A stretch of DNA of 64,000 bases from a bacterium (GCA_050239825.1 JBFXGO010000004.1:4590-68589); one strand, 5' to 3'; shown: positions 33,241 to 64,000, counted from the first letter of the stretch. Numbers and translations are program-made. The notes: generated by a model from the letters alone, not told the origin.

Positions 33241-33296
33241 AAAAACATTATAGAGGGTATAGGCAAAAAATCAATATACTCTTTCAGAAGGCGGCG

Positions 33297-33595
33297 GGGG
33301 GTGAAATTTGTGAAAATCAAATGGATGGAAGAAATAGTTTATCTCGATTGGCAACAATTCCACTGTTTCATCAGGACACATAATAGAAGCATCATAGAGA
33401 TGAAATTTTGGGATCTTGTTTTCAAAAAGAACCATATTAATCACATAAAACAGACACTGTTAAAGAATTGAAGAACTAAGAAAAAACATTGGAAATTTGA
33501 CTTTTAATACACAGTTAAAAGCAAAACTAAAGAATCATAACGATAAAATTCGGAACTTCAAAACATTTTCACAAATTTCACCCCCCGCCGCCTTT
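33297..33595. repeat. 28-30-bp perfect inverted repeat pair flanking ~240 bp (MITE-like/large stem-loop)
   Basis: aaggcggcggggggtgaaatttgtgaaaat at 33299-33328 is exactly complementary to attttcacaaatttcaccccccgccgcctt at 33566-33595. The pair sits in a 360-bp intergenic gap between two minus-strand genes. Confidence 0.7.
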
Positions 33596-48247: not shown

Positions 48248-49510
48248 ATGAGAATTGAGTGTCCAAAATGTCACAAAAAATATGAAGTTGAGGATATGTA
48301 TATTCCTATAGGCGGAGGACCTGTAAGATGCCCCAATTGCAAAAATATTTTTGGGATCTATGTTGAGCCGATGGATATTCCCATGACAGAGATAATTGAA
48401 GATGACGAACAGCCGGCCGCTTCAGCAGGAACCCCTTTTACCACACCTGAGATAGGAGAGACATCCTTCTCACCGGAATATGCGCCTCAGGAGGAGCAGG
48501 CGAATTCACCTGCAGACAGTGATAACCTCTCCGAGCAGTTGAATGACCTCGGCAGTTTCTCAAGCTCCGTTCCTGAAACAGAGACTGCATTCGCACAGCC
48601 GACGGAAGAGACTCAGAATTTCGGCAATATATCATTTGACCCTGCCAAATCAGCTCCTGTGGAGGAGGCAAAACCCTCATTTTCTCAAAGCATGGATGAT
48701 TTTGGAGTTCCTCCAGCATTTGCTCAGCCTGCTCAACCTAAAACAGCAGAGCCTGCAATGCCTGATTTCGGAGCAAGTCCATTTGCACAGCCAAAACCTG
48801 CCGCTCCTCAAACACAGGACTTTGGAGTCCCTCCAGCATTTGCTCAGCCGACTCAGCCTAAAACAGCAGAGCCTGCAATGCCTGATTTCGGAGCAAGCCC
48901 ATTTGCGCAGCCAAAACCTGCCGCTCCTCAAACACAGGACTTTGGAGTCCCTCCCGCATTTGCTCAGCCGACTCAACCTAAAACAGCAGAGCCTGCAATG
49001 CCTGATTTCGGAGCAAGTCCATTTGCGCAGCCAAAACCTGCCGCTCCTCAAACACAGGACTTTGGAGCAGTGCCTCCAGCATTTGCTCAACAAAAGCCGG
49101 TAGAGCCTGTGACACATGAACCTATGCCTTTTCCTGCTGCAAAACCAGCACCTCAACCCCAGCAATCGGCTCCTGTCGGACATATAAAGCCGGGCGGAGC
49201 AATGTTTGATGTTCTTCTCGCAGGATTCAATCTTCCGCCGAATTTCAGCTCTATGCCTGAAAACATGCAGAAGGTTCATAAAGATGCCGTCAAGCTTGCA
49301 CGACAACTTGCAAAGGACATTCTCCTATACCATAAAGATGAGGTGGAGAAGGGTATGGCAAATGGAAATATCAAAGAGTCTATGAAGGATGAAATTGAAA
49401 AATCTTATAAATTCTATACACAGAGAATTCAACCTGAAATAATTTCAAGCAGCAATTACTTCAATGAAGCATTGAATAAAATTGTAGCAAAAGGACAGAA
49501 GATTTTTTAG
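48248..49510 (+). CDS. MJ0042-type zinc-ribbon protein with Pro/Ala/Gln-rich tandem-repeat linker and helical C-terminal domain
   Basis: 420 aa. N-terminal CPKCHKKYEV...VRCPNCKNIF, then three identical 40-aa repeats, then a C-terminal helical domain of about 110 aa. GGAG lies 7 nt upstream of the ATG. Confidence 0.7.
   Translation: MRIECPKCHKKYEVEDMYIPIGGGPVRCPNCKNIFGIYVEPMDIPMTEIIEDDEQPAASAGTPFTTPEIGETSFSPEYAPQEEQANSPADSDNLSEQLNDLGSFSSSVPETETAFAQPTEETQNFGNISFDPAKSAPVEEAKPSFSQSMDDFGVPPAFAQPAQPKTAEPAMPDFGASPFAQPKPAAPQTQDFGVPPAFAQPTQPKTAEPAMPDFGASPFAQPKPAAPQTQDFGVPPAFAQPTQPKTAEPAMPDFGASPFAQPKPAAPQTQDFGAVPPAFAQQKPVEPVTHEPMPFPAAKPAPQPQQSAPVGHIKPGGAMFDVLLAGFNLPPNFSSMPENMQKVHKDAVKLARQLAKDILLYHKDEVEKGMANGNIKESMKDEIEKSYKFYTQRIQPEIISSSNYFNEALNKIVAKGQKIF
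48701..49060 (+). repeat. Perfect 120-bp tandem direct repeat x3 (in-frame, inside CDS)
   Basis: The unit tttggagt(t/c)cctcc(a/c)gcatttgctcagcc...cctcaaacacaggac occupies 48701-48820, 48821-48940 and 48941-49060 with 3 or fewer mismatches per copy. A degenerate fourth copy follows. Confidence 0.85.
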
Positions 49511-52669: not shown

Positions 52670-52699
52670 TAAGAATAAAAAAAATCAGGGGAACCTGAT

Positions 52700-52795
52700 T
52701 TTGTAATTTTCCTACGGCAGAATTACCTGCATCAGGTTCAAGGGTCAGCGGAAAAGACCGCTTTCTCAGCCACTTTTAGTAGCTCCCCAAATAGA
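52700..52795 (-). promoter_or_regulatory. TPP (thiamine pyrophosphate) riboswitch controlling thi4-thiE-thiC
   Basis: The minus-strand sequence reads GGGGAGC...GGCUGAGA...GACCCUUGAACCUGAUGCAGGUAAUUCUGCCGUAGGAA. This matches the THI-box consensus CUGAGA...ACCCUUUGAACCUGAUCUGGAUAAUGCCAGCGUAGGGAA. It is followed by the hairpin aaatcaggggaacctgattt before the RBS and start. Confidence 0.85.
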
Positions 52796-52839
52796 TTAAA
52801 CACCATATCAAACATAAAGTCAAGACCCGCATCTTAAAA

Positions 52840-54116
52840 ACGCAATCTGACAGGTAATTCAGTTACGAGTTTCGGGTTGCGGGTTACGAGTTTAAATACA
52901 ATAGGACAGATGATTAAATGACTTGTCTTTACATTTCCGAGGAAAAATTCCAGTACAGCCAGCAAAACAGCCGTGAGCCGTGTGCCATGTGCCTTGAGCT
53001 TAATACGGGGAGTTGAGTAAGATTTTGCCTTTACATTTCCGAATGAGAAGCCTGTCCACAGCGCTCGTCTTTTCAATGCTTCTCATGAGGACAATCAATT
53101 AAATAACTTATTGATACACGAAAGCTACAAGTCGGCGAGGACGCTTCGCGCAGACGCCCATCAAGTGGTTCTCTCCTCGCTCCGCTAACCCATCTTGATA
53201 TAGCGGCGAAGCGGAGTGTGCGAGCCGACGCTATGCCCGCGTGCAGCCAGCAAAACAGCCCTGAGCCGTGTGCCATGTGCCATGAGCTTAATACGGGGAG
53301 TTGAGTAAGATTTTGCCTTTACATTTCCGAATGAGAAGCCTGTCCACAGCGCTCGTCTTTTCAATGCTTCTCATGAGGACAATCAATTAGATAACTTATT
53401 GATACACGAAAGCTACAAGTCGGCGAGGACGCTTCGCGCAGACGCCCATCAAGTGGTTCTCTCCTTGCTCCGCTAACCCATCTTGATATAGCGGCGAAGC
53501 GGAGTGTGCGAGCCGACGCTATGCCCGCGTGCAGCCCCAGTTCAATCTTCAATTATCAATCAACAATAAAATGATAGACCCTTCACGATAGTCATAACCA
53601 CAGAGGCGTTCAGGGTGACACGGTTGAGTAAGATTTTGTCTTTACAATAATCTTCACAAAGTTCTGGTGCAACCCGAGGCGTCTATCATGTGCGTTCGCG
53701 CACATTACACCCTCGCCAATGTGGGGACATTCCTTCGGTGTGTCCCCACTGCAACATTCAATTAATTAACTTATTGATACACGAAAGCTACAAGTCGGCG
53801 AGGACGCTCCGCGAAGACGCCCATCAAGTGGTTCTCTCCTTGCTCCGCTAACCCATCTTGATATAGCGGCGAAGCGGAGTGTGCGAGCCGACGCTATGCC
53901 CGCGTGCAGCCCCAGTTCAATCTTCAATTATCAATCAACAATAAAATGATAGACCCTTCACGATAGTCATAACCATAGAGGCGTTCAGGGTGACACGGTT
54001 GAGTCATAACCATAGAGGCGTTCAGGGTGACACTATTGAGTCATAACCACAGAGGCGTTCAGGGTGACACGGTTGAGTAAGATTTTGTCTTTACAGACTG
54101 GTGTTCAAGCTGACGC
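52840..54116. repeat. Repeat-dense GC-rich non-coding region: nested direct repeats and hairpins
   Basis: A 288-bp unit at 52955-53247 recurs nearly identically at 53243-53535. A third copy of its 142-bp sub-unit lies at 53769-53910. The 37-mer tcataaccayagaggcgttcagggtgacacggttgag occurs once at 53591-53627 and as three tandem copies at 53966-54076. The motif ttgagtaagattttgyctttaca recurs five times. The module ttcagttacgagtttcgggttgcgggttacgagtttaaatacaat lies at 52858-52905. Confidence 0.85.
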
Positions 54117-54869
54117 TTACTCTTCTAACAACCTCAAAATTCCGTTTATAACTGTCAAAGGGTGCACAGGACAACCGGGTATGTATAAATCAATTTTATG
54201 ATTTTTCATAAATTCTCTATTCAATGCATCTGACCCTGAAAAGATTCCACCGCTAATTGCGCATGCTCCTGCCAGTATGATGATTTTAGGTTCAGGCACT
54301 GCTTTGTATGTCTCCTCAAGCGCCTCTGCCATATTCTCACTCACCGGTCCCGTTATTATTATGCCGTCTGCATGGCGCGGGCTTGCCACAATATCCACTC
54401 CGAATCTTCCCATATCAAAATTGACATTTGAACACGCATTAAGTTCCATCTCACATCCATTGCATCCTCCGGCTGAGACTGAGCGAAGTTTCAATGATTT
54501 TTTGAAGATTTTTTTTATGTCGGCTCTTGTTTTAATGGCGTCTCTGAACCTAATCTTATATTCAGTATTTGCCGTCACTATAAGCTTCTCCCTCGAATCG
54601 CATGAAATTCTGTGCTCATCAGTAAATTTCACAATATTCTCCCCGAGCTTTCTTTCGCACTTCCCGCAGAAAGTGCATTTGCCGAGGTCTATCGAGAATG
54701 GCGCATTTAAAATTGCATCGGCAGGGCAGAGACCCTCTATTTCGCTTTTGATTAGATTCTCTTTCTTAATTTCAGGGAATCCCCTGAACATCTCATTGAC
54801 TTTTGCATTTTTAACATCAGGTATAAACTGACGCCCCTGTCTTAATGATATTTTTATGTTTTCAAACAT
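54117..54869 (-). CDS. Complex-I/hydrogenase small-subunit homologue (NuoB/HyfI-like) with N-terminal degenerate ferredoxin segment
   Basis: 250 aa. Proximal [4Fe-4S] ligand motifs GGCNGCEMEL, GACAISGG and PGCPVHP. The N-terminus (CP...CTFCGKC) is a half-degenerate 4Fe-4S ferredoxin motif. Confidence 0.8.
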   Translation of the reverse strand: MFENIKISLRQGRQFIPDVKNAKVNEMFRGFPEIKKENLIKSEIEGLCPADAILNAPFSIDLGKCTFCGKCERKLGENIVKFTDEHRISCDSREKLIVTANTEYKIRFRDAIKTRADIKKIFKKSLKLRSVSAGGCNGCEMELNACSNVNFDMGRFGVDIVASPRHADGIIITGPVSENMAEALEETYKAVPEPKIIILAGACAISGGIFSGSDALNREFMKNHKIDLYIPGCPVHPLTVINGILRLLEE

Positions 54870-54875
54870 AGCACC

Positions 54876-56387
54876 TCACAGATCATTTCCGCAGTATGAA
54901 AGGTTAAAACTCTTGTTGCACAGAGGGAAATCCGATATGCCGTTTCCTCTGACAGAGAGAGCAAGCGCGAACCAGTTGTTGAATGAAGGGTCCTTTATCT
55001 TATATCTTGCCCTGTTCTTTTCATCTGTCACAACTGCATGCACGACCTCTCCCCTCCACCCTTCAATAAGAGATATCAGGAATGTGTTTGATGGAATTTC
55101 CATTTTCTCGGGAACCGACACAGATGGAGAATCACCCAGTACCATAAGAAGTTCATTTATATAATTCATTGACTGCTGCATTTCAAGATACCTCAGATAT
55201 GCCCTCGCAAAAACATCGCCAGTGTCGAGAGAAAGAGGATGAATCGGATACTTCCTGTATGCTCCGAAAGGATGATCGCTCCTTGAATCAATCTTCACTC
55301 CTGATGCGCGCGCCGCCATGCCGACGAAGCCGCATTCTCGCGCCTGCTTTGCCGTTACTGCCCCAGTATTTTCAAGTCTCGAAAGAACCGAGGGCGAATC
55401 AAACATCTCTTCACACAACTGCTCCATATTTTCCCTGACAATATGAAGATTTTTCTTTATCAGATTTCTCTTTTTTTCTGTTATCCTGTAATTATTCTTT
55501 CCAATTCCTATGAATCCCCTTCCGAACCTGCTTCCGCAGATTGCAAGCATTGTGTTTATCACATAAGTCCTATTTGCTCCTGAGACTGCACTCCCTATCA
55601 TGTATGCCACATCATTGGCTATAGCTCCAATATCTCCTATATGAACTGCGATTCTTTCCATCTCAAGAGCTATCGCTCTCTCAAGAAGTTCATCTTCCGT
55701 CGGTTTAATATCGAGAGTTCCTTCAATTATACTGCTGTACGCATAGGCATTTCCAATCACAGTGTCACCCGTAATCGATTCAGCCAATTCCATTTTGTCT
55801 GTAATATTTCCCTTCAAAAAGAGATTTTCAACCCCTCTGTGCTGGTAACCGAGCTGTATTTCGAGATGAATTATCTTTTCTCCTTCGCATAAGAATCTGA
55901 AATGACCGGGTTCAATAACTCCTGCATGAACAGGACCGACTGCGACCTGATGGATTTCATCGCTTGAAATTGTATAAAAGGGGTAATCATAGGTTTTCGC
56001 TTTATTATCAAATTTACAGTGCGGATATCTGACCGGCTTTAGGAAAGGATGCCCCTCCGGGACAATCCCCCACTCTTCAAACAATTCTCTTTCAAACAAA
56101 TTGAATGAAGGATGATAATTCGTAAGTGATTCATACTTCATTCTCTGTTTTTCAAAGAGTGTTGAGACGATGTACATCAAAGAGTTGTTGTCATCGCTCA
56201 TCACTGCATAAACTCTCACGCTTTCTCCCTCTTTCTTTCCGAACAGAAGTATGCACCTCTTTGATTCATCTACAGATTTTTTTAAAAATGAGATAAATTC
56301 GTTTATGTTAAGATCCGGTATTTCTTTTGTGCTTATTTTTAATCCGTTTTTGATTTTGGTTGATTCCATCATTTTCTCCCAATCCAA
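54876..56387 (-). CDS. Fused NuoC-NuoD / hydrogenase large-subunit homologue lacking NiFe-ligating cysteines (Ehr-type)
   Basis: 503 aa. The NuoC-like N-terminus (NLFERELFEEWGIVPEGHPFL) precedes a NuoD/HycE-like core (GPVHAGVIEPGHFRF...LGYQHRGVENL). The L1 position reads SITGDTVIGNAY (no CxxC) and the C-terminus NLSYCGNDL carries one Cys instead of DPCxxC. Confidence 0.8.
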   Translation of the reverse strand: MDWEKMMESTKIKNGLKISTKEIPDLNINEFISFLKKSVDESKRCILLFGKKEGESVRVYAVMSDDNNSLMYIVSTLFEKQRMKYESLTNYHPSFNLFERELFEEWGIVPEGHPFLKPVRYPHCKFDNKAKTYDYPFYTISSDEIHQVAVGPVHAGVIEPGHFRFLCEGEKIIHLEIQLGYQHRGVENLFLKGNITDKMELAESITGDTVIGNAYAYSSIIEGTLDIKPTEDELLERAIALEMERIAVHIGDIGAIANDVAYMIGSAVSGANRTYVINTMLAICGSRFGRGFIGIGKNNYRITEKKRNLIKKNLHIVRENMEQLCEEMFDSPSVLSRLENTGAVTAKQARECGFVGMAARASGVKIDSRSDHPFGAYRKYPIHPLSLDTGDVFARAYLRYLEMQQSMNYINELLMVLGDSPSVSVPEKMEIPSNTFLISLIEGWRGEVVHAVVTDEKNRARYKIKDPSFNNWFALALSVRGNGISDFPLCNKSFNLSYCGNDL

Positions 56388-57772
56388 TGAGCCGCATTTT
56401 CCAGCATCTCCTTAACCGGTTCAGGCATGTAAAATCCAAGCAGGAAACAGACCAGTATAAGAATAATCTGAGGAATATAGCCCGGCAAACTTTCATCTGA
56501 CTTCCCGCTCTTTTCTCCTGAAAAGAGCATGGTTATAACCATCTTCATGAAGCCATAGAATAGTGCCGTCAGAAGAACAAGAATAACTGCGAGTTCCAGA
56601 TACATGCTTTTTTCCAGAAGATTCTTCACAAGCAGAAATTCGCTTAGGAACGAGAGAGAGGATGGTATTCCAAGTATTCCGAGAGCAGATAACAGGAAAA
56701 TGATTCCCGTTTTCTTCATATCATTGAACACATTTCCCGTCTCATCATAATGTTTTGTTTTGTATTTTTCAAGAATATTTCCTGTTGTAAGAAATAAGGA
56801 TGCCTTCATCATTGAATGTCCGAGAAGATGAATCATACCCGCAAGAAGACCCAATCCGCCGCTGCCTAATGACAGGGCTATTATTCCCATATTCTCCACA
56901 GAAGAGTAAGCGAGCATTCTCTTATAGTTCTTAATCCTTAATATGAATACTGTCGAAACGAATATCGAAAGAATGCCCATCACAACAAGCATGGTGCCGG
57001 CAAAATGCTCTGCATTGAATATGTACATCACCTTCAAAACTCTTATGATTCCTATTAGGGCTGTATTTAGAAGAGTCGCCGACAGCATCGCGGAAACGGG
57101 AGACGGGGCTTCAGAGTGCGCGTCGGGAAGCCAGAAATGCAGAGGAGCAAGACCCATTTTTGTTCCAAATCCTATGAGAATGAACAGAAATGATATTTTT
57201 AAAAACAGAGGGGTCACTCCGTCGGTGTAATTGTAAAAATCCGCGAAAAAGAGCGAGTCGGCATGCTTGAATGTTATTGATAAAAATATTATTCCTAAAA
57301 AACCGATAGCTATGCCGATGGAGCATATAAAGACATATTTCCATGCGGCTTCAAGAGAGTGCTTTGTTTTGCTGAAATAAATGAGAGGCGCAGTGAGTAT
57401 TGTCGTCGCTTCAAGAAGAACCCAATAAAGTCCGATGTGCTGAGCCATAAGAGATAGCATCATCAGCAAATCAAATAAAATGAAACACACTGTATATACA
57501 GAGTGCCATGTGTTGTCAGGATTATTTTTCTTTAAAAATTCAACAGAGTAAATTGATGACGCGAAAAAGACAAGCGATAAAACAAATAAAAAGGGTTTGT
57601 TAAGAGAATCAACAGCAATGAACTTTGTCGAAATCTGATTTACAAACAGAATGTAGAGTGTGAATATCAGATTAATCACGCCGTTGACAGCGAGCAGTAC
57701 ATAATCAGCGGACCTTCTCCTTAGAAGAGCCGATGCCGATGCAAACAATAAAGGCAAAATAAAATAGTACAT
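56369..57772 (-). CDS. NuoM/NuoN/HyfF-like antiporter-type membrane subunit
   Basis: 467 aa, about 14 TM segments, with the Mrp/NuoLMN-family conserved core (GLAPLHFWLPDAHSEAPSPVSA). Confidence 0.75.
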   Translation of the reverse strand: MYYFILPLLFASASALLRRRSADYVLLAVNGVINLIFTLYILFVNQISTKFIAVDSLNKPFLFVLSLVFFASSIYSVEFLKKNNPDNTWHSVYTVCFILFDLLMMLSLMAQHIGLYWVLLEATTILTAPLIYFSKTKHSLEAAWKYVFICSIGIAIGFLGIIFLSITFKHADSLFFADFYNYTDGVTPLFLKISFLFILIGFGTKMGLAPLHFWLPDAHSEAPSPVSAMLSATLLNTALIGIIRVLKVMYIFNAEHFAGTMLVVMGILSIFVSTVFILRIKNYKRMLAYSSVENMGIIALSLGSGGLGLLAGMIHLLGHSMMKASLFLTTGNILEKYKTKHYDETGNVFNDMKKTGIIFLLSALGILGIPSSLSFLSEFLLVKNLLEKSMYLELAVILVLLTALFYGFMKMVITMLFSGEKSGKSDESLPGYIPQIILILVCFLLGFYMPEPVKEMLENAAHWIGRK

Positions 57773-58407
57773 CAGTCCCTCAGGTCCGTCAGATTGTCTA
57801 TGTTGTCGTCATTATAACTCTCCTTTATCCTCGAAATAAAAAAGCCTGAAATGAAGACAATCATGAAGAGTTCGAGCAAAACTCCAAGATTCACGATGAG
57901 AGGCATCTCCTTTAAAAGAGAGAGTGAAAACAGAAAGATTCCGTTTTCAAACACCATGTAACCCATTATATGCGTTATCAGCCGTTTCTTTGTAAGTATA
58001 ATGTACATTCCGGCGATTATTGAAGAGAATGCCACACCAAAATGAAATGGATTGGAGTAGCTTAAAAGATCTTTTGTATAAAACGAGAGCAAAAATCCGA
58101 ATGAAAATATAAGTATCATCGCGAGTATTGAGAAGAAACTTGATATAGAAACATCAACATCCCTTGATGCTTCATTCTGATAAACAATTCTTCCGAGTAT
58201 ATATGGAATCAGAATTGTCTTGAAACCGATTGTCTCCAAAAGAATAAATATCAGATTCGGCAGATTTGTCTCTTTCATATTTATAAGCACAATCAGAAAA
58301 AGAATCACACCCTGAGCCGATAGAGCGCCTATATATGCTTTAAGGCGGCTCGTCACCGAAAAGTATATGACTGTTCCCGCGAACAATACAAGCAGGGCAA
58401 AGTACAT
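57772..58407 (-). CDS. HyfE-like small membrane subunit
   Basis: 211 aa with about 6-7 TM segments. Its size and position between the NuoH-like and NuoN-like genes match hydrogenase-4 subunit E. Confidence 0.5.
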   Translation of the reverse strand: MYFALLVLFAGTVIYFSVTSRLKAYIGALSAQGVILFLIVLINMKETNLPNLIFILLETIGFKTILIPYILGRIVYQNEASRDVDVSISSFFSILAMILIFSFGFLLSFYTKDLLSYSNPFHFGVAFSSIIAGMYIILTKKRLITHIMGYMVFENGIFLFSLSLLKEMPLIVNLGVLLELFMIVFISGFFISRIKESYNDDNIDNLTDLRD

Positions 58408-59324
58408 TACACGCCACCTCCGCGCCCCATAAGGACAGATGCTATTATGAAGAGGGCAATTCCAAAGACAAGAAGCAAAAATTGAGAAACATAAATCATT
58501 TTCAATCTTGCCATTATGGATTCAATCGTTCCTACTATAATTGCGGATACTATGCTTACCGCTATAAATCCTCCAAGAGCAAAGAGTACCCCTGACTCCA
58601 TAAATATGACAGAAGAAATCAGAGCTGTGAATATTGTCATTTTGAGATATGTCGCATAATTTATCAGCGCCAAGGAAGGACCCGAGTGGTCGAGAACCAT
58701 AACCTCATGGATCATTGTCAATTCAAGGTGCGTATTCGGATCATCAACAGGCACTCTCTTCCCTTCGGACAGTATCATGACAAAGAATGCCGCAATAGAA
58801 AGCAGAGAGGCCACAATCGTATACGAATTTGTAAAATTGAGAGTCGAAATCATCTTCGAAATTGAAGTGTTTCCAGAGAGGTATATGAATGATGATAGTA
58901 TAATGAATAGGGAAGGTTCAATAAATAGAGCAAATGACGCCTCCCTGCTTGCTCCCATTCCTTCAAAACTCGAACCGGTGTCAAGCGCCGAAAGCAGCAT
59001 GAAAAAATTGCCGATAGTCATTATATATGCAAAGAATAGGAAATCTCCTTCAAATGAAAGAATGGATTTGTTGAACCCATAAGGAACGAACAAAACCGCA
59101 GTGAGCACTGAAGAGACATAAAACACTGGACCTACAGAGAACATAAATGAAACAGTCTCTGAAATCATCTCTCTCTTCTTAAAAAGCTTGATGCAGTCTA
59201 ACATCGGCTGAAAAACCGATGGACCTTTTCTACCAGCCCACAATGACTTGACCCTATTTATAATTCCCGCAAAGAGAAAAGGCATAACGAGAATCATGAT
59301 TAAAGTGGTAAAAATATTCATCAT
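58407..59324 (-). CDS. NuoH/HyfC/HycD-like membrane subunit
   Basis: 305 aa. The N-terminal signature INRVKSLWAGRKGPSVFQPMLDCIKLFKKRE matches the NuoH-family consensus RxxxARxQxRxGPxxxGxxQPxADxxKLxxKE. Confidence 0.75.
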   Translation of the reverse strand: MMNIFTTLIMILVMPFLFAGIINRVKSLWAGRKGPSVFQPMLDCIKLFKKREMISETVSFMFSVGPVFYVSSVLTAVLFVPYGFNKSILSFEGDFLFFAYIMTIGNFFMLLSALDTGSSFEGMGASREASFALFIEPSLFIILSSFIYLSGNTSISKMISTLNFTNSYTIVASLLSIAAFFVMILSEGKRVPVDDPNTHLELTMIHEVMVLDHSGPSLALINYATYLKMTIFTALISSVIFMESGVLFALGGFIAVSIVSAIIVGTIESIMARLKMIYVSQFLLLVFGIALFIIASVLMGRGGGV

Positions 59325-61300
59325 TGCTTAATTATTAATATTAGAAGTGAAATCAACAGAAACAGCAATCCCATAAGAAGATACTGCTGAGTGGAGCCCT
59401 TTTGAATTCCGGAAAATCTGTCAAAGAATCTTTTAAGAAATCCCATTGAGGGTGCTATCAGATACTTTTCAAATACATCCTGCTTCTCTTTTTCCACACT
59501 CATTTTCTTTGGAAAGTACTCCTCTATCTCAGTTTTTGTCCCTCTCTCATTTAAAAGCATTGATGATATATTCCTAAGCGGCTCAGTATAGGATGATGAT
59601 TTGTACTGCACTTCCGGTGTTCCTCTGACATAACCGCAATCCCACACCCTCTCGGCTCTTCCAATTCTGCCCTTAAGCATTAGCCTCCTCAGCATAAAAA
59701 CAACGGAGAAGATCAGAAGAAACAAAAGAGAACTAAAAGAGATATTCGTAAGAATTCTCTTGAAATAGATTAAAACAAGAGAGTGCTCTTCCGGAAATGA
59801 AGAGTGAATAACTTGGCTTAACAGATTAAATGCCAGTTGAGGAAAAAGACCTGTCAGAAGTATCAACGTCGACATAAGAATCATAGAAACAAGAGATACC
59901 TTCATGTCATCTTTTATGTCATGTGCGAACGAACTCCTTGCGGAGCCGAGAAGCATTATGCCAGATGCTTTCGTGAAACAGACGACTGCCATTACTCCGA
60001 CAAAAGCAATCACTGTCATTGCGCATACTGATATCACCGCAAGGGGCATCACGGATGTTCTTACTCCCTCTACTGCCCCAAAATAAATCATGAATTCAGA
60101 TATGAAGCCGCTTAAGAGAGGAAGGCCTGAAATGGCAGCGCTTCCTATTATGAACATGTATGAAGAGTAGGGCATAAGCTTTAACAAACCGCCGAGTCTG
60201 TTGATGTTTCTCGTATGTGTCTTCAAGTATATGTTGCCTGATGAAAAGAAAAGCAGAGGTTTAAAGATAGAATGGTTTAATGAGTGAAGCAAAGCTCCGG
60301 AAAATCCCAATACTGTCATCATCGGATTTTTATAAGCATTTCCCGCAAGCATCAGTCCTATTCCTATGCCAATTATTCCCATGTTTTCAATTGAAGAGTA
60401 AGCAAGAAGTTTCTTTATGTCATTTTCAAACATCGCATACAGTATACCAATAAGAGCTGTCACCGAAGATATTGATAATACCGCAAATATAATAACTTTT
60501 GACGGAGTTTCAAGCATCAGCGAGAATCTGAGTATGCCGAATATTCCCATCTTCAGCATTATTCCCGACATAAACCCGGATATATTTGACACAGATGCAG
60601 GATGAGCTTTCGGAAGCCAATTGTGAAACGGGGCAAACCCCGCCTTAATGCCAAATCCGAAAAACAAAAGAAGAAATGCAACCATCGCTTTCATCGATTT
60701 GTTATTGAGAGAATCTCTGAAAGAGAGCATATTCAAATCACCTGCCATATTAGAAAGAAGCAAAAAACCTGTGAGTATGAAAAGAAAACCTATGTGCATA
60801 TAGACAAAATACTCAAGCCCGGCTCTCCTGACATCCTCTTTGCCTCCCTCAAACATAATTGCCAGAAATGATGTGAGAGACATGACCTCCCACACCATCA
60901 AAAAAGCAAAGATGTTTTGCATAGTCAGAAGCAATACCATGGATAGTATAAGAAAATTGAATGAAAGGTACAAAAGAACAAATTGATTTTTGTTCTGATA
61001 CTCTTTAAGATAATCAATAGAGTAAAGCGATGTGAAAATAGCGCCAAGATAAGTTATTAAAAGGAAGAATGCTGAAAGAGGGTCTATTCTTACAATTATG
61101 TCGCCGACAGGGCTAAATGAGAATAAGAGAGTCTCAGTGGTGCATCCTCTGATGACAGATTCAAGCGCAGGAATCATTCCGATTGTTGAAGAGACAAGAA
61201 TCAGCGCAAACGAATAGAGAGGTTTTTTATTGTTGCTCACTTTCAAGCCGCAGATAGTTCCCACAAAAAGTATGACAGAGGAAATGATATACAACTTCAA
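59321..61300 (-). CDS. NuoL/HyfB-like antiporter-type membrane subunit
   Basis: 659 aa, about 16 TM segments, with the NuoL-family core (GFAPFHNWLPKAHPASVSNISGFMSG). Confidence 0.8.
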   Translation of the reverse strand: MKLYIISSVILFVGTICGLKVSNNKKPLYSFALILVSSTIGMIPALESVIRGCTTETLLFSFSPVGDIIVRIDPLSAFFLLITYLGAIFTSLYSIDYLKEYQNKNQFVLLYLSFNFLILSMVLLLTMQNIFAFLMVWEVMSLTSFLAIMFEGGKEDVRRAGLEYFVYMHIGFLFILTGFLLLSNMAGDLNMLSFRDSLNNKSMKAMVAFLLLFFGFGIKAGFAPFHNWLPKAHPASVSNISGFMSGIMLKMGIFGILRFSLMLETPSKVIIFAVLSISSVTALIGILYAMFENDIKKLLAYSSIENMGIIGIGIGLMLAGNAYKNPMMTVLGFSGALLHSLNHSIFKPLLFFSSGNIYLKTHTRNINRLGGLLKLMPYSSYMFIIGSAAISGLPLLSGFISEFMIYFGAVEGVRTSVMPLAVISVCAMTVIAFVGVMAVVCFTKASGIMLLGSARSSFAHDIKDDMKVSLVSMILMSTLILLTGLFPQLAFNLLSQVIHSSFPEEHSLVLIYFKRILTNISFSSLLFLLIFSVVFMLRRLMLKGRIGRAERVWDCGYVRGTPEVQYKSSSYTEPLRNISSMLLNERGTKTEIEEYFPKKMSVEKEKQDVFEKYLIAPSMGFLKRFFDRFSGIQKGSTQQYLLMGLLFLLISLLILIIKQ

Positions 61301-61998
61301 AATTTCTCCTGCATCAATTGCTTTTCAATTTCAAAGAGAAGTTCGTCTTTGTTCGGTTTTTTGCTGAGAAGTTCCGCAAATTCGCTTCTCTGTATAATGT
61401 AAGAGAGCAAAGAGAGGGTTTTCAAATGGTTTTTATGATTTGATGTTATTATAATAAACAGAGTATGCAGATACTCTTTTTTTTCGCCGTAGACGAAGGG
61501 TGTCTTTAAAAAGCAGACTGCCACAAGAGAATTTTCGGCATCGGTGATTATGGGTTTCTTCGGATGCGGCACAGCAACGCCCTGTCCTATGTAGGTGGGA
61601 ATCATCTCCTCTCTCTCTAATAAAAATGAAAGGAGAAGATTCTTATCCACAGAGTTTGAAAGAGGCAAAAGTGAAATGGCATTCGAGAGGACACTCTTTA
61701 TGTCACTTCCTTCAATATTATAGTAAATTCCGCCGTTTTTTATTAGCTCGGCAAGAAATGCAGGTTTTTCAATATTTTGTAATTTTATGAATTCACTTGT
61801 CAGAGATGCCCTTCTGTTAAGAATCCACTCGCTTATCTCTCCCTTATTAAATCTGTACTGCTTATTTATCATATAGAAAGGAATCTCATTCCTCTTTATG
61901 AGGCCTATGATATCCTTTTCGGATAGTTTGAGTAACAATGATATATCTTTAACTCTTAAATCCATCTTTTTCCTTCTTGGAATTGAAATTATAGACAA
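61297..61998 (-). CDS. HTH (MerR/excisionase-type) + PTS EIIA-Ntr domain regulator, first gene of the Ehr-like operon
   Basis: 233 aa. An N-terminal HTH (LRVKDISLLLKLSEKDIIGLIKRNEIPF) precedes an EIIA type-2 domain with the active-site His intact (GQGVAVPHPKK). An ATGA overlap joins it to the NuoL-like gene. Confidence 0.65.
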   Translation of the reverse strand: MSIISIPRRKKMDLRVKDISLLLKLSEKDIIGLIKRNEIPFYMINKQYRFNKGEISEWILNRRASLTSEFIKLQNIEKPAFLAELIKNGGIYYNIEGSDIKSVLSNAISLLPLSNSVDKNLLLSFLLEREEMIPTYIGQGVAVPHPKKPIITDAENSLVAVCFLKTPFVYGEKKEYLHTLFIIITSNHKNHLKTLSLLSYIIQRSEFAELLSKKPNKDELLFEIEKQLMQEKF

Positions 61999-62029
61999 TT
62001 ATCTATAAATGTCAAGCGACATTGTTTAC

Positions 62030-62165
62030 CAAAAGTGATGTGCGAGACGGCGCTACACCCGAGTGCAGCCACCAAAGCAGCCTTCAATAATAAAAGATAA
62101 TTCAGTTACGAGTTTCGGGTTACGGGTTACGAGTTATGAGTTTAAATACAATATGTATCGAGACT
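62030..62165. repeat. Second copy of the repeat family seen at 52.8-54.1 kb
   Basis: gtgcgagacggcgctacacccgagtgcagcc...ccttcaataataaaagata...taattcagttacgagtttcgggttacgggttacgagttatgagtttaaatacaat is a near-identical set of modules to 53215-53247, 53536-53575 and 52855-52905. Confidence 0.7.
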
Positions 62166-62508
62166 TGTCAAGGAAGTTGTGTAAAGAGGGATTAGTATTC
62201 ATAAGGGAGTTCTCCAAAGAGATTAACGAAGGATTGGCGGAGGTAATATAATTTAGCAATGATTTTAGGATAACCGTTTTTCCATTTAGGTAACGGATAT
62301 AAATATTAATGAAGAGGATGTCTTCGGATTGGAAGAATCCGCCCTTTTGCTATCGCAAAGTACGGTGTGAAATATAATCGTGACCATTACAATACTATTA
62401 TGCAAACTTCTTGACAAAGTGGGCGCAATACAATATGATTAAAATGATTAATAAAAAGGAGATGGTTTTGAAAAAGAAATTAGAAGGAGTATTTAAACAG
62501 GAGGAATT

Positions 62509-64000
62509 GTGAAAAAAGTTATTTTTATTATCATTATTATTGCTTCAGCATTGTTTGTTTTTGCTTCAAATGAGAGACCATTCAGAGAAGAGGATATGCT
62601 TCTTGCTAACTTTGAACAACCGGAAGATTACAATCAACCCAACTGGGCGACAGATAGTTTGAATGTAAGGGGAGTAGGAATTTATCCTTTCTTTGGAGAT
62701 GCATATGATGTTTTCATCGTAGATACATTAGCGTATTCTTGCATGAATAATTATCTAGTAGTGTTAAATGTTAAGAACAAAGCAAATCCTTTTTTGGTAG
62801 GTTATTTTAGTTTACCGGGTTATGCTTATGGTGTCTATGTTTCAGGAGATTATGCGTATGTTGCTGATGAGGATTATGGTTTACAGATAATAGATATCTC
62901 AAATCCTTCAAGCCCAACCCTTGCAGGGAGCTATGATACACCGAGTTATGCTTATAGTGTCTATGTTTCAGGCAGTTATGCCTATGTTGCTGATGAGGGT
63001 TATGGTTTACAGATAATAGATATCTCAAATCCTTCAAGCCCAACCCTAACAGGAAGCTATGATACACCGGATTATGCAAGGGGTGTCTATGTCTCAGGAG
63101 ATTATGCCTATGTTGCTGATGATAGTTCTGGTTTACAGATAATAGATATCTCAAATCCCATAAGCCCAACCCTTGCAGGGAACTATGATACACCGGATCA
63201 TGCATGGGGTGTCTATGTTTCAGGCAGTTATGCCTATGTTGCTGATGGTTATTCTGGTTTACAGATAATAGATATCTCAAATCCTTCAAGCCCAACACTT
63301 GCAGGGAGCTATGATACACCGGGTTATGCATTGGGTGTCTATGTTTCAGGCAGTTATGCCTATGTTGCTGATGCTGATTATGGTTTACAGATAATAGATA
63401 TCTCAAATCCTTCAAGCCCAACCCTTACAGGGAGCTATGAAACACAGGGTTATGCTTATGGTGTCTATGTATCAGGCAGTTATGCCTATGTTGCTGATTA
63501 TGATTATGGTTTACAGGTAATAGATATCTCAAATCCTTCAAGCCCAACCCTTACAGGGAGCTATGATACACCGGGTTATGCATGGGGTGTCTATGTTTCA
63601 GGCAGTTATGCCTATGTTACTGATCGTAATTCAGGTCTACAGATAATCAACATCTCTGACCCCACAAGCCCAACACTTGCAGAGAGCTATGATACACCGG
63701 GGTGGGCTTATGGTGTCTATGTTTCCGGCAGTTATGCCTATGTTGCTGATGATGATTATGGTTTACAGATAATAGATATCTCAAATCCTTCAAGCCCAAC
63801 TCTTGCAGGAAGCTATGATACACCGGGGAATGCTATAGGTGTCTATGTATCAGGCAGTTATGCCTATGTTACTGATCGTAATTCAGGTCTACAGATAATC
63901 AACATCTCTGACCCCACAAGCCCAACACTTACAGGAAACTATGATACACCGGGGATTGCAAGGGGTGTCTATGTTTCAGGAGATTATGCCTATGTTGCTG
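62509..64000 (+). CDS. LVIVD-repeat surface protein (signal peptide; runs off window end)
   Basis: GGAGG lies 7 nt upstream of the GTG. After the signal peptide VKKVIFIIIIIASALFVFA come 13 or more consecutive 40-aa LVIVD units (GVYVSGSYAYVADxDYGLQIIDISNPSSPTLxGSYDTPGxA), nearly identical at the DNA level. Confidence 0.8.
   Translation, partial: MKKVIFIIIIIASALFVFASNERPFREEDMLLANFEQPEDYNQPNWATDSLNVRGVGIYPFFGDAYDVFIVDTLAYSCMNNYLVVLNVKNKANPFLVGYFSLPGYAYGVYVSGDYAYVADEDYGLQIIDISNPSSPTLAGSYDTPSYAYSVYVSGSYAYVADEGYGLQIIDISNPSSPTLTGSYDTPDYARGVYVSGDYAYVADDSSGLQIIDISNPISPTLAGNYDTPDHAWGVYVSGSYAYVADGYSGLQIIDISNPSSPTLAGSYDTPGYALGVYVSGSYAYVADADYGLQIIDISNPSSPTLTGSYETQGYAYGVYVSGSYAYVADYDYGLQVIDISNPSSPTLTGSYDTPGYAWGVYVSGSYAYVTDRNSGLQIINISDPTSPTLAESYDTPGWAYGVYVSGSYAYVADDDYGLQIIDISNPSSPTLAGSYDTPGNAIGVYVSGSYAYVTDRNSGLQIINISDPTSPTLTGNYDTPGIARGVYVSGDYAYVA

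Follow-up and report, generated by a model that had tools for sequence, protein, structure and literature searches.

Background

According to PMC4679880, which cites Mrazek (2007), heptanucleotide repeats make up the most frequent class of long simple sequence repeats (SSRs). Arrays of the heptamer TAACTGA, together with mixed heptamer arrays, have been found in intergenic regions of Beggiatoaceae, Cyanobacteria and Bacteroidetes; where close relatives share the gene neighbourhood, their corresponding spacers are shorter and free of repeats (MacGregor 2015, PMC4679880). In Nostoc, heptamer repeats close to promoters are reported to affect expression (preprint 10.1101/2022.06.06.494920). Long SSRs of this kind, including the cyanobacterial STRR and the TAACTGA repeats, consist of at least three head-to-tail 7-nt units in intergenic DNA; several heptamer families stand side by side, indels come in steps of 7 nt, and contigs tend to end within the arrays. 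The TAACTGA repeats lie mostly just upstream of start codons.

ERIC/IRU, REP-BIME and BOX elements, the modular intergenic repeats of enterobacteria and pneumococci, form another group. ERIC elements are imperfect palindromes of ~127 nt, highly conserved across species and patchy in their presence, and the hairpins that REP and ERIC sequences form in transcripts act as barriers or stabilisers. The defining property of these families is their dispersal to many sites of the genome. Composite transposons and cassettes, finally, carry direct repeats on either side of functional genes, the repeats of composite transposons being IS elements.

Here we analyse a window of 64,000 nt, the whole of a stretch taken from a metagenome-assembled contig, whose nearest named relatives belong to candidate division WOR-3. 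A preliminary description had noticed members of one repeat family on both sides of an operon for an Ehr-like (energy-converting hydrogenase-related) complex, and had seen in this either a recombination-prone or mobilisable cassette or shared cis-regulatory or small RNA elements.

Results and discussion

The operon and the two regions that flank it

The window is ~95% coding and has about 11 intergenic regions of at least 40 nt. The two that bear repeats are the largest, and they are consecutive because the operon between them has no internal gaps. This operon, of about 8 kb on the minus strand (54117-61965), comprises an HTH_17-EIIA regulator and six Ehr/Mbh-like genes, with the following Pfam content: two Proton_antipo_M proteins, an NADHdh protein, a 4L-like protein, a fused Complex1_30kDa and 49kDa protein, and a 20K/ferredoxin-like subunit (Oxidored_q6). 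Ehr complexes resemble Group-4 hydrogenases and complex I and have a large subunit without the NiFe-binding CxxC; the large subunit encoded here (503 aa) has no such motif, and the label Ehr-like fits the operon.

The upstream repeats lie inside a 498-nt region separating two divergent genes, the regulator gene on the minus strand and a gene for an LVIVD-repeat protein on the plus strand. It is a divergent promoter region, as had been stated: a sigma-70-type promoter matching the consensus at 12 of 12 positions, TTGACA-16-TATAAT (minus strand, 61988-62015), faces the operon, and TTGACA-17-TATGAT (plus strand, 62411-62439) faces the LVIVD gene. Since the TTG start proposed for the regulator by the ORF finder overlaps the minus-strand promoter, the start codon should be the ATG at 61965, giving a protein of 222 aa; this is the length of all homologues and also that of an independent gene call. 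The deposited annotation (MGE3062322.1, 233 aa; additional part 61965-61998) begins at the TTG that overlaps the -10 box of this perfect promoter.

At the other end of the operon, the stop codon of the last Ehr gene (minus strand, 54117-54119) forms the right-hand border of a repeat array, at the left of which lies a promoter for thiamine genes (thi; minus strand, 52795-52823, TTGACT-17-TTTAAT), read from the sequence and conserved in a related genome. It is followed by a TPP riboswitch (minus strand, 52692-52799), matched by an Rfam model, and by the genes for Thi4, ThiD2/ThiE and ThiC. This riboswitch and a tRNA are the only features in the window to reach threshold with the Rfam 15 covariance models, and nothing credible was found in either repeat region at E<=10.

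Some other elements of the window were noted in passing. Between the upstream repeats and the LVIVD promoter, the plus strand carries a site that resembles a promoter (TTAACG-18-TATAAT, 62223-62252) and, beyond it, a hairpin of terminator type with its run of T (62325-62341, CCCTTTTGC), so that 62223-62350 may encode a small RNA of ~90 nt; it has no Rfam match. The LVIVD gene contains an in-frame coding tandem repeat (62814-64000, a 126-nt unit in more than nine copies) that runs past the end of the window, and the gene of a zinc-ribbon protein contains another (48701-49089, a 120-nt unit x 3.2). The intergenic region that ranks third in size, bounded by a GGDEF-TPR gene and the gene of a 558-aa protein without Pfam match, contains a perfect 30-nt inverted repeat (AAGGCGGCGGGGGGTGAAATTTGTGAAAAT, 33288-33317 and 33565-33594) that flanks 247 nt; an invertible switch, a MITE and a very long hairpin are all conceivable.

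Repeats shared by the two regions

Two pieces of the downstream array recur at 62039-62153, namely a heptamer module (M1) and a remnant of the junction between two further modules (M2 and M3). Both pairs are direct repeats, which bears out the statement that one family occupies the two intergenic regions flanking the operon. The segment originally singled out (62030-62165) is shared only in part: about 100 of its 136 bases are common to the array and the remainder is not.

The upstream copy of M1 (copy B, plus strand, 62095-62153) lies 79-138 nt upstream of the Ehr -35 box and consists of a left flank (AGATAATTCA), the heptamers CAGTTAC, GAGTTTC, GGGTTAC, GGGTTAC, GAGTTAT and the incomplete GAGTT, and a right flank (TAAATACAATA). 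TRF reports a period of 7 with 5.6 copies at 62104-62142. The other copy (copy A, plus strand, 52852-52903) is the leftmost module of the array, placed upstream of the thi -35 box at a distance of 28 nt, and has the same flanks with one heptamer fewer. Positions 62098-62135 and 52855-52892 agree at 37 of 38 bases (97%; blastn-short E 1e-13); copy B then has its extra heptamer, ATGAGTT, beyond which 16 bases are again identical (62138-62153 and 52888-52903, TTTAAATACAATA...). The 56-bp module of the preliminary description (62098-62153) thus does recur, at 52855-52903. The M1 pattern matches twice in the window against none expected (100 shuffles), and the copies, 9243 nt apart and both on the plus strand, constitute a direct repeat (pair D15 of our repeat search). 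As the unique flanks (AGRTAATTCA and TAAATACAATA) match as well as the heptamers, the two copies of M1 are to be regarded as true paralogues.

The second shared piece (plus strand, 62039-62082) begins 23 nt upstream of the Ehr -35 box and is 84% identical to 53217-53260 over 44 nt. It covers the 3' tail of M2 and the first 17 nt of M3 (CAGCCASCAAARCAGCC; M2 tail GTGCGAGACGGCGCTACACCCGAGTGCAGCC, M3 head ACCAAAGCAGCC). This match is borderline on its own (E 0.006-0.02 with blastn, 0.018 with an nhmmer profile); it is supported by joining the same two modules as the array does and by lying 15 nt from M1. The tail of the large repeat unit does therefore reappear upstream of the operon, as had been proposed; the unit itself, given there as 142 bp, measures 154 nt and is present in three copies.

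Module order differs between the two sites: M1 lies to the left of M2 and M3 at 52.8 kb and to their right at 62 kb. Because its pieces are arranged differently, the 62-kb segment is a mosaic and does not reproduce any continuous part of the array. Repeat search, blastn and nhmmer revealed no further copy of any module in the 64-kb window. Within that span the modules are confined to 2 of the ~11 intergenic regions, and, as far as 64 kb can show, they lack the ubiquity that would have made the bracket a coincidence.

The downstream array

The composite array spans 1.24 kb (plus-strand coordinates 52852-54095) and separates the Ehr stop codon from the thi promoter, its boundaries being set by comparison with the orthologous junction of the related locus L133. 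It begins with M1 and M4', followed by two copies of a 288-nt tandem unit, M3-M4-H0-H1-M2, that are 98.6% identical. The second part consists of TCAAT-type heptamers, M5, M4, a unique hairpin segment, H1-M2, TCAAT heptamers again, three copies of M5, and M4.

The three copies of the 154-nt M2 unit, identified by repeat search, blastn and nhmmer, lie at 53095-53248, 53383-53536 and 53758-53911 on the plus strand, as do all the modules that follow. M3 (52956-53011 and 53244-53299) is made up of CAGCCAGCAAAACAGCC, an array of GNGCCNT heptamers and TTAATACGGGGAG. The sequence of M4 is TTGAGTAAGATTTTGYCTTTACA; H0 is a hairpin (ATGAGAAGC...GCTTCTCAT) found at 53043-53086, before M2 copy 1, and at 53331-53374; and H1 is a small AT-rich palindrome, ATCAAT-N10-ATTGAT. 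A period scan placed the TCAAT-type heptamer arrays at 53540-53570 and 53915-53945. The 37-nt unit M5 (TRF; repeat pair D4) forms three tandem copies followed by M4 (53965-54078) and occurs once more, singly, at 53590-53626. In the unique segment before M2 copy 3, two perfect hairpins (53688-53705, ATGTGCG-TTCG-CGCACAT; 53719-53747, GTGGGGACA...TGTCCCCAC) occupy the place that H0 has in the other copies.

Copies within the array are 97-100% identical and hence recent. Translated repeat units and array ORFs have no homologue among 5.8 billion proteins and give no coding signal, and searches of plasmids and phages returned no match to the array region.

Since the window comes from a metagenome-assembled contig, repeats might have been misjoined, or tandem copies collapsed or expanded, during assembly. 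Logan contigs of SRR27751817 stop inside the modules, one at 62106 (L121) and another at 54075 (L132), so that they independently confirm neither the inner part of the array nor the greater part of M1 copy B. As far as they run, their ends within the modules and the whole M2-tail/M3-head remnant included, these contigs are 100% identical to the window; the M1 copies differ by one substitution and an extra heptamer and so are not one collapsed copy; and L121 and L132 also break against each other within a gene, which shows that such ends are not specific to repeats. An artefactual array or bracket is accordingly very improbable.

Contigs from two samples in the Logan collection end in M1 (L121), in M4 (L132) or in the M2 core (start of L130, which corresponds to L129 ~1534), in line with the tendency of contigs to end within heptamer SSRs. 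These ends may hint at further copies or length variants in the populations, and contigs break in genes too. We rejected them as evidence of additional genomic copies, given the break of L121 and L132 inside a gene.

Comparison with related genomes

The operon and its regulator are present in every relative examined. In each, a TTGACW-17-TATAAT promoter lies directly upstream of the operon, and none of these promoters is accompanied by M1. The upstream neighbourhood varies by lineage, the LVIVD gene of the window being replaced by other genes in the relatives.

GCA_028698175.1, with 72-73% protein identity to the window (loci L122 and L133), allows the downstream end to be compared. In L133, only 35 nt separate the last Ehr gene from the same thi promoter (TTGACT-17-TTTAAT), after which comes the TPP riboswitch (L133 836-942); the region of riboswitch and promoter is 85% identical to that of the window. 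Further downstream, Thi4, ThiD2/ThiE, ThiC and a convergent zinc-ribbon gene follow as in the window. Because this genome keeps the junction without the array, the adjacency of Ehr and thi genes is ancestral, and the 1.24-kb array is a lineage-specific expansion, its repeats having been added to a pre-existing junction. A short, repeat-free orthologous spacer is also what is described for heptamer long SSRs.

M1 and heptamer arrays in other genomes

M1 belongs to a known and widespread type of simple-sequence array, that with heptamer units. A period scan of the window recovered six arrays of period 7, of three sequence types, against 0-1 each for periods 5, 6, 8 and 9; none of the six lies outside the two repeat-bearing intergenic regions. 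The arrays thus share with heptamer long SSRs the intergenic runs of at least three head-to-tail 7-nt units, the presence of several heptamer families side by side, and the 7-nt indels, the M1 copies differing by one heptamer. They differ from them in forming part of a wider mosaic that also contains modules without heptamers.

On the minus strand, M1 reads TAACTCG, TAACCCG, YAACCCG, AAACTCG, TAACTGA. These units are of the TAAC type and the last is exactly TAACTGA; the others (TAACTCG, TAACCCG, AAACTCG) depart from that sequence, so the array is not one of the strict TAACTGA repeats of MacGregor (2015). Its position also differs, since the arrays of the window lie upstream of promoters and not in 5' UTRs just before start codons, and the host, apparently WOR-3-related, is outside the groups in which PMC4679880 found TAACTGA repeats.

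To place M1 among such arrays we scanned 185,579 species genomes with the pattern GTTACGAGTT...GTTACGAGTT. The matches listed comprise at least 120 loci, in Bacteroidota, Chloroflexota, Planctomycetota, Patescibacteria, Omnitrophota, Thermodesulfovibrionales and others. Among these matches there were 165 additional arrays of period 7, with other sequences, against 6-40 for other periods. Different heptamer arrays cluster in genomes of many phyla among the matches listed (loci L003, L013, L033 and L064, for example), and ~13% of the arrays there have an inverted partner array with which they could form a hairpin. One locus from Saprospiraceae (L064) has an exact 31-mer in common with positions 62105-62135 of the window, which looks like convergence.

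We had considered whether the heptamer GTTACGA might have a special status across phyla. This was rejected, a shuffled control heptamer being nearly as common in viral contigs (23 loci against 38 for the real heptamer, mostly at multiples of 7). Heptamer arrays are therefore generic, and likeness within the heptamers alone is no evidence of common descent.

A shared cis-regulatory role, one of the earlier proposals, would make M1 a module such as an array recognised by a heptad-binding protein, co-ordinating or insulating the minus-strand thi and Ehr promoters. Both copies do have the same orientation upstream of sigma-70-type minus-strand promoters (28 nt from that of thi, ~80 nt from that of Ehr), their 97% identity suggests recent copying or constraint, and the effect reported for promoter-near repeats of Nostoc (10.1101/2022.06.06.494920) offers a precedent. 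Against this, the distances to the two promoters differ by ~50 nt, arrays built on arbitrary heptamers are common, and the orthologous promoters, that of thi in L133 and those of Ehr in L122, L123, L129 and L137, are conserved without M1. As the relatives manage without the module, the case for a regulatory M1 is weakened and we judge it improbable.

Does the bracket mark a mobile cassette?

Direct repeats on either side of a functional operon are reminiscent of composite transposons and cassettes. The M1 copies are direct and 9.2 kb apart, and the upstream neighbourhood, with its LVIVD gene, is unlike that of the relatives, so that a rearrangement breakpoint coincides with the 62-kb intergenic region; one could accordingly suppose that the repeats delimit a mobilisable or deletion-prone unit carrying the Ehr operon. 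Most other observations argue against it. The operon is vertically conserved in every relative (~69% DNA identity), and the order Ehr-thi-zinc ribbon is kept in a relative devoid of the repeats; the operon and its downstream junction are therefore ancestral, and in this the locus differs from composite transposons and cassettes. A Pfam scan of the seven operon proteins and six other window ORFs (the LVIVD gene being left out) matched no recombinase, integrase or transposase family. The shared repeats amount to just 38+16 nt and 44 nt and are not collinear, being tens of bases long where composite transposons have IS elements, and neither terminal inverted repeats nor target duplications were seen.

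In the repeat search, the M1 pair is the only pair that flanks the operon, and the sole inverted pair in the interval (I6, 54996-55030/60235-60269, 71% complementary) lies inside genes. As to the adjacency of the two repeat-bearing regions, two random regions of 11 adjoin with a chance of 10/55 = 0.18, before allowing for the selection of the finding. This chance, the vertical conservation of the operon and the lack of a recombinase among the ORFs scanned together argue against a mobilisable cassette, and we consider one to be highly unlikely. Deletion between the 38-nt direct repeats would be physically possible.

Other classes of element were also tried. A MITE was rejected for want of terminal inverted repeats and, by inspection, of target duplications at the module ends; readings as a CRISPR, an integron attC site, a retron or IS200/IS605 ends were rejected in view of the absence of spacers, of an integrase and of an Rfam match.

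On balance, we take 62039-62153 to be a short mosaic remnant of a lineage-specific family of modular intergenic repeats, the main body of which is the array at 52852-54095, and the bracket to have arisen incidentally as repeats grew. This family combines building blocks of two kinds: heptamer arrays of three sequences, an instance of the long SSR phenomenon and thought to grow by slippage in steps of 7 nt; and unique modules, chiefly the M2 palindrome and its accessory hairpins, with an architecture like that of ERIC, REP-BIME and BOX. The ancestor would already have had an M2 unit at the 3' end of the Ehr operon. In the lineage of the window M2 would then have been duplicated by unequal recombination or slippage and heptamer arrays acquired, filling a spacer of ~35 nt that formerly set the Ehr stop codon apart from the thi promoter. 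The upstream region would hold a decayed piece of M2 and a young copy of M1, which probably arrived through duplication or ectopic gene conversion involving adjacent regions that bear repeats. If the bracket results from growth in the only two sizeable intergenic regions nearby, it is not the signature of a mobile cassette.

The M2 unit

The core of M2, ~125 nt long, is an imperfect palindrome for which a long hairpin is predicted. RNAalifold, applied to an alignment with few independent sequences, gives a hairpin of 34 pairs with conserved stems and a variable apical loop of 21 nt. Folding energy is unremarkable (z = -1.6 for the single M2 sequence), and single-sequence folding of every module on both strands gave no significant z-score. 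Wobble pairs provide conflicting hints as to the strand, the inner helix favouring the plus strand of the window and the outer helix the minus strand.

A profile search over ~1 Mb, made up of the window and related loci, matched only the three window copies, the 62-kb remnant, the locus L123 of a WOR-3 relative, and L129/L130. In L123, M2 is found 10-13 nt beyond the last Ehr gene, and its location and orientation are those seen in the window. L129/L130 have a 68-nt M2 core 45 nt upstream of the Ehr -35 box, again in the same orientation. M2 was absent from both sides of the operon in L122/L133 and from L134-L139. Two JGI metagenome scans for M2 yielded no match and one match (the L129 contig) respectively, and a viral scan none.

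When the window is compared with L123, identity is 84-88% over M2 and its upstream hairpins and 69% over the operon DNA (8 kb); the former level is comparable to that of the TPP riboswitch region between the window and L133 (85%). The unit kept beside the operon in distant relatives measures roughly 180-220 nt. At the position equivalent to H0, L123 has a different sequence that would still form a 9-bp stem (CAAAAACAT...ATGTTTTTG); relative to the window, 6 of 7 pairs of the H0 stem are changed on both sides with pairing kept. In a tree of the regulator, L123 is the outgroup to the window, L129 and L122, and the association of M2 with the operon is consequently old.

In several respects M2 resembles the ERIC/IRU, REP-BIME and BOX elements: it is an imperfect palindrome of ~125 nt with a possible long hairpin; it is intergenic or 3'-flanking, part of a modular mosaic with variable numbers of sub-elements and partial copies; and it combines high conservation between species with patchy presence at orthologous sites. 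It differs from them in having no sequence similarity to any of them and in being tandemly amplified and mixed with heptamer arrays. The dispersal that defines those families has no counterpart in the sequence searched, where the seven full or partial copies of M2 all lie at the ends of one operon.

Such conservation may reflect a selected, operon-linked element. The excess of M2 identity over that of the operon DNA points to selection or transfer, and repeat growth with the bracket as its by-product leaves it unexplained. One could therefore regard the whole unit, M4-H0-H1-M2, as a structured non-coding element that is under selection and functionally linked to the HTH-EIIA/Ehr operon. It might be a convergent small RNA, a platform to which proteins bind, or a structure in the 3' UTR. 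On this view the bracket would represent old copies at both ends, the downstream one kept and triplicated and the upstream one decaying. The copy directly after the last Ehr gene in L123, the core upstream of the operon in L129, the age of the association, the conserved stems with their variable loop, the compensated H0 stem, and the lack of M2 in the other intergenic regions of the related loci searched all speak for such an element. Its absence on both sides of the operon in GCA_028698175.1 and in L134-L139 shows, on the other hand, that it is dispensable. The case of the window suffers from ascertainment bias, having been chosen for its bracket, and the independent tests are weak (one of ~20 intergenic regions for L123, one of 2-3 for L129). 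There are just three independent sequences, with conflicting strand hints and the modest folding energy given above; no promoter or terminator for an independent small RNA is conserved; and three tandem copies would be unusual for a dedicated regulator. We hold selection on M2 to be possible, if unlikely.

The same idea can be put more specifically. M4-H0-H1-M2 (~220-250 nt) would be an undescribed structured non-coding element, selected at the ends of Ehr operons in a WOR-3-related clade, and, as a small RNA or a structure within the 3' UTR, would control the Ehr transcript or make it more stable; triplication and decayed upstream copies would be variations on an old arrangement in which the element brackets the operon. 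This is a minority reading, which we consider unlikely. A candidate cis-regulatory or RNA role, which the preliminary description had suggested for the family, is nevertheless somewhat strengthened in the case of M2 by its conservation beside the operon in other lineages. Under repeat growth in the two flanking regions, which we continue to prefer, any action of the elements would most likely be at the RNA level, the co-transcribed M2 hairpins in the 3' UTR of the operon serving as a barrier or stabiliser.

Conclusion

Taken as a repeat family, the elements described here are of little consequence: they are a further case, probably from a WOR-3 lineage, of heptamer arrays and modular intergenic repeats, a phenomenon already known though unexplained. 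The locus does show the birth of an array inside a 35-nt spacer of a very compact genome, and it illustrates that bracketing by short repeats is weak evidence of mobility where a genome has few intergenic regions. M2 deserves more attention: although non-coding, it is better conserved than the genes beside it, and three lineages have it at an end of this operon. If it is functional, it would provide a handle on the regulation of an Ehr-type energy-converting complex in an uncultured group.
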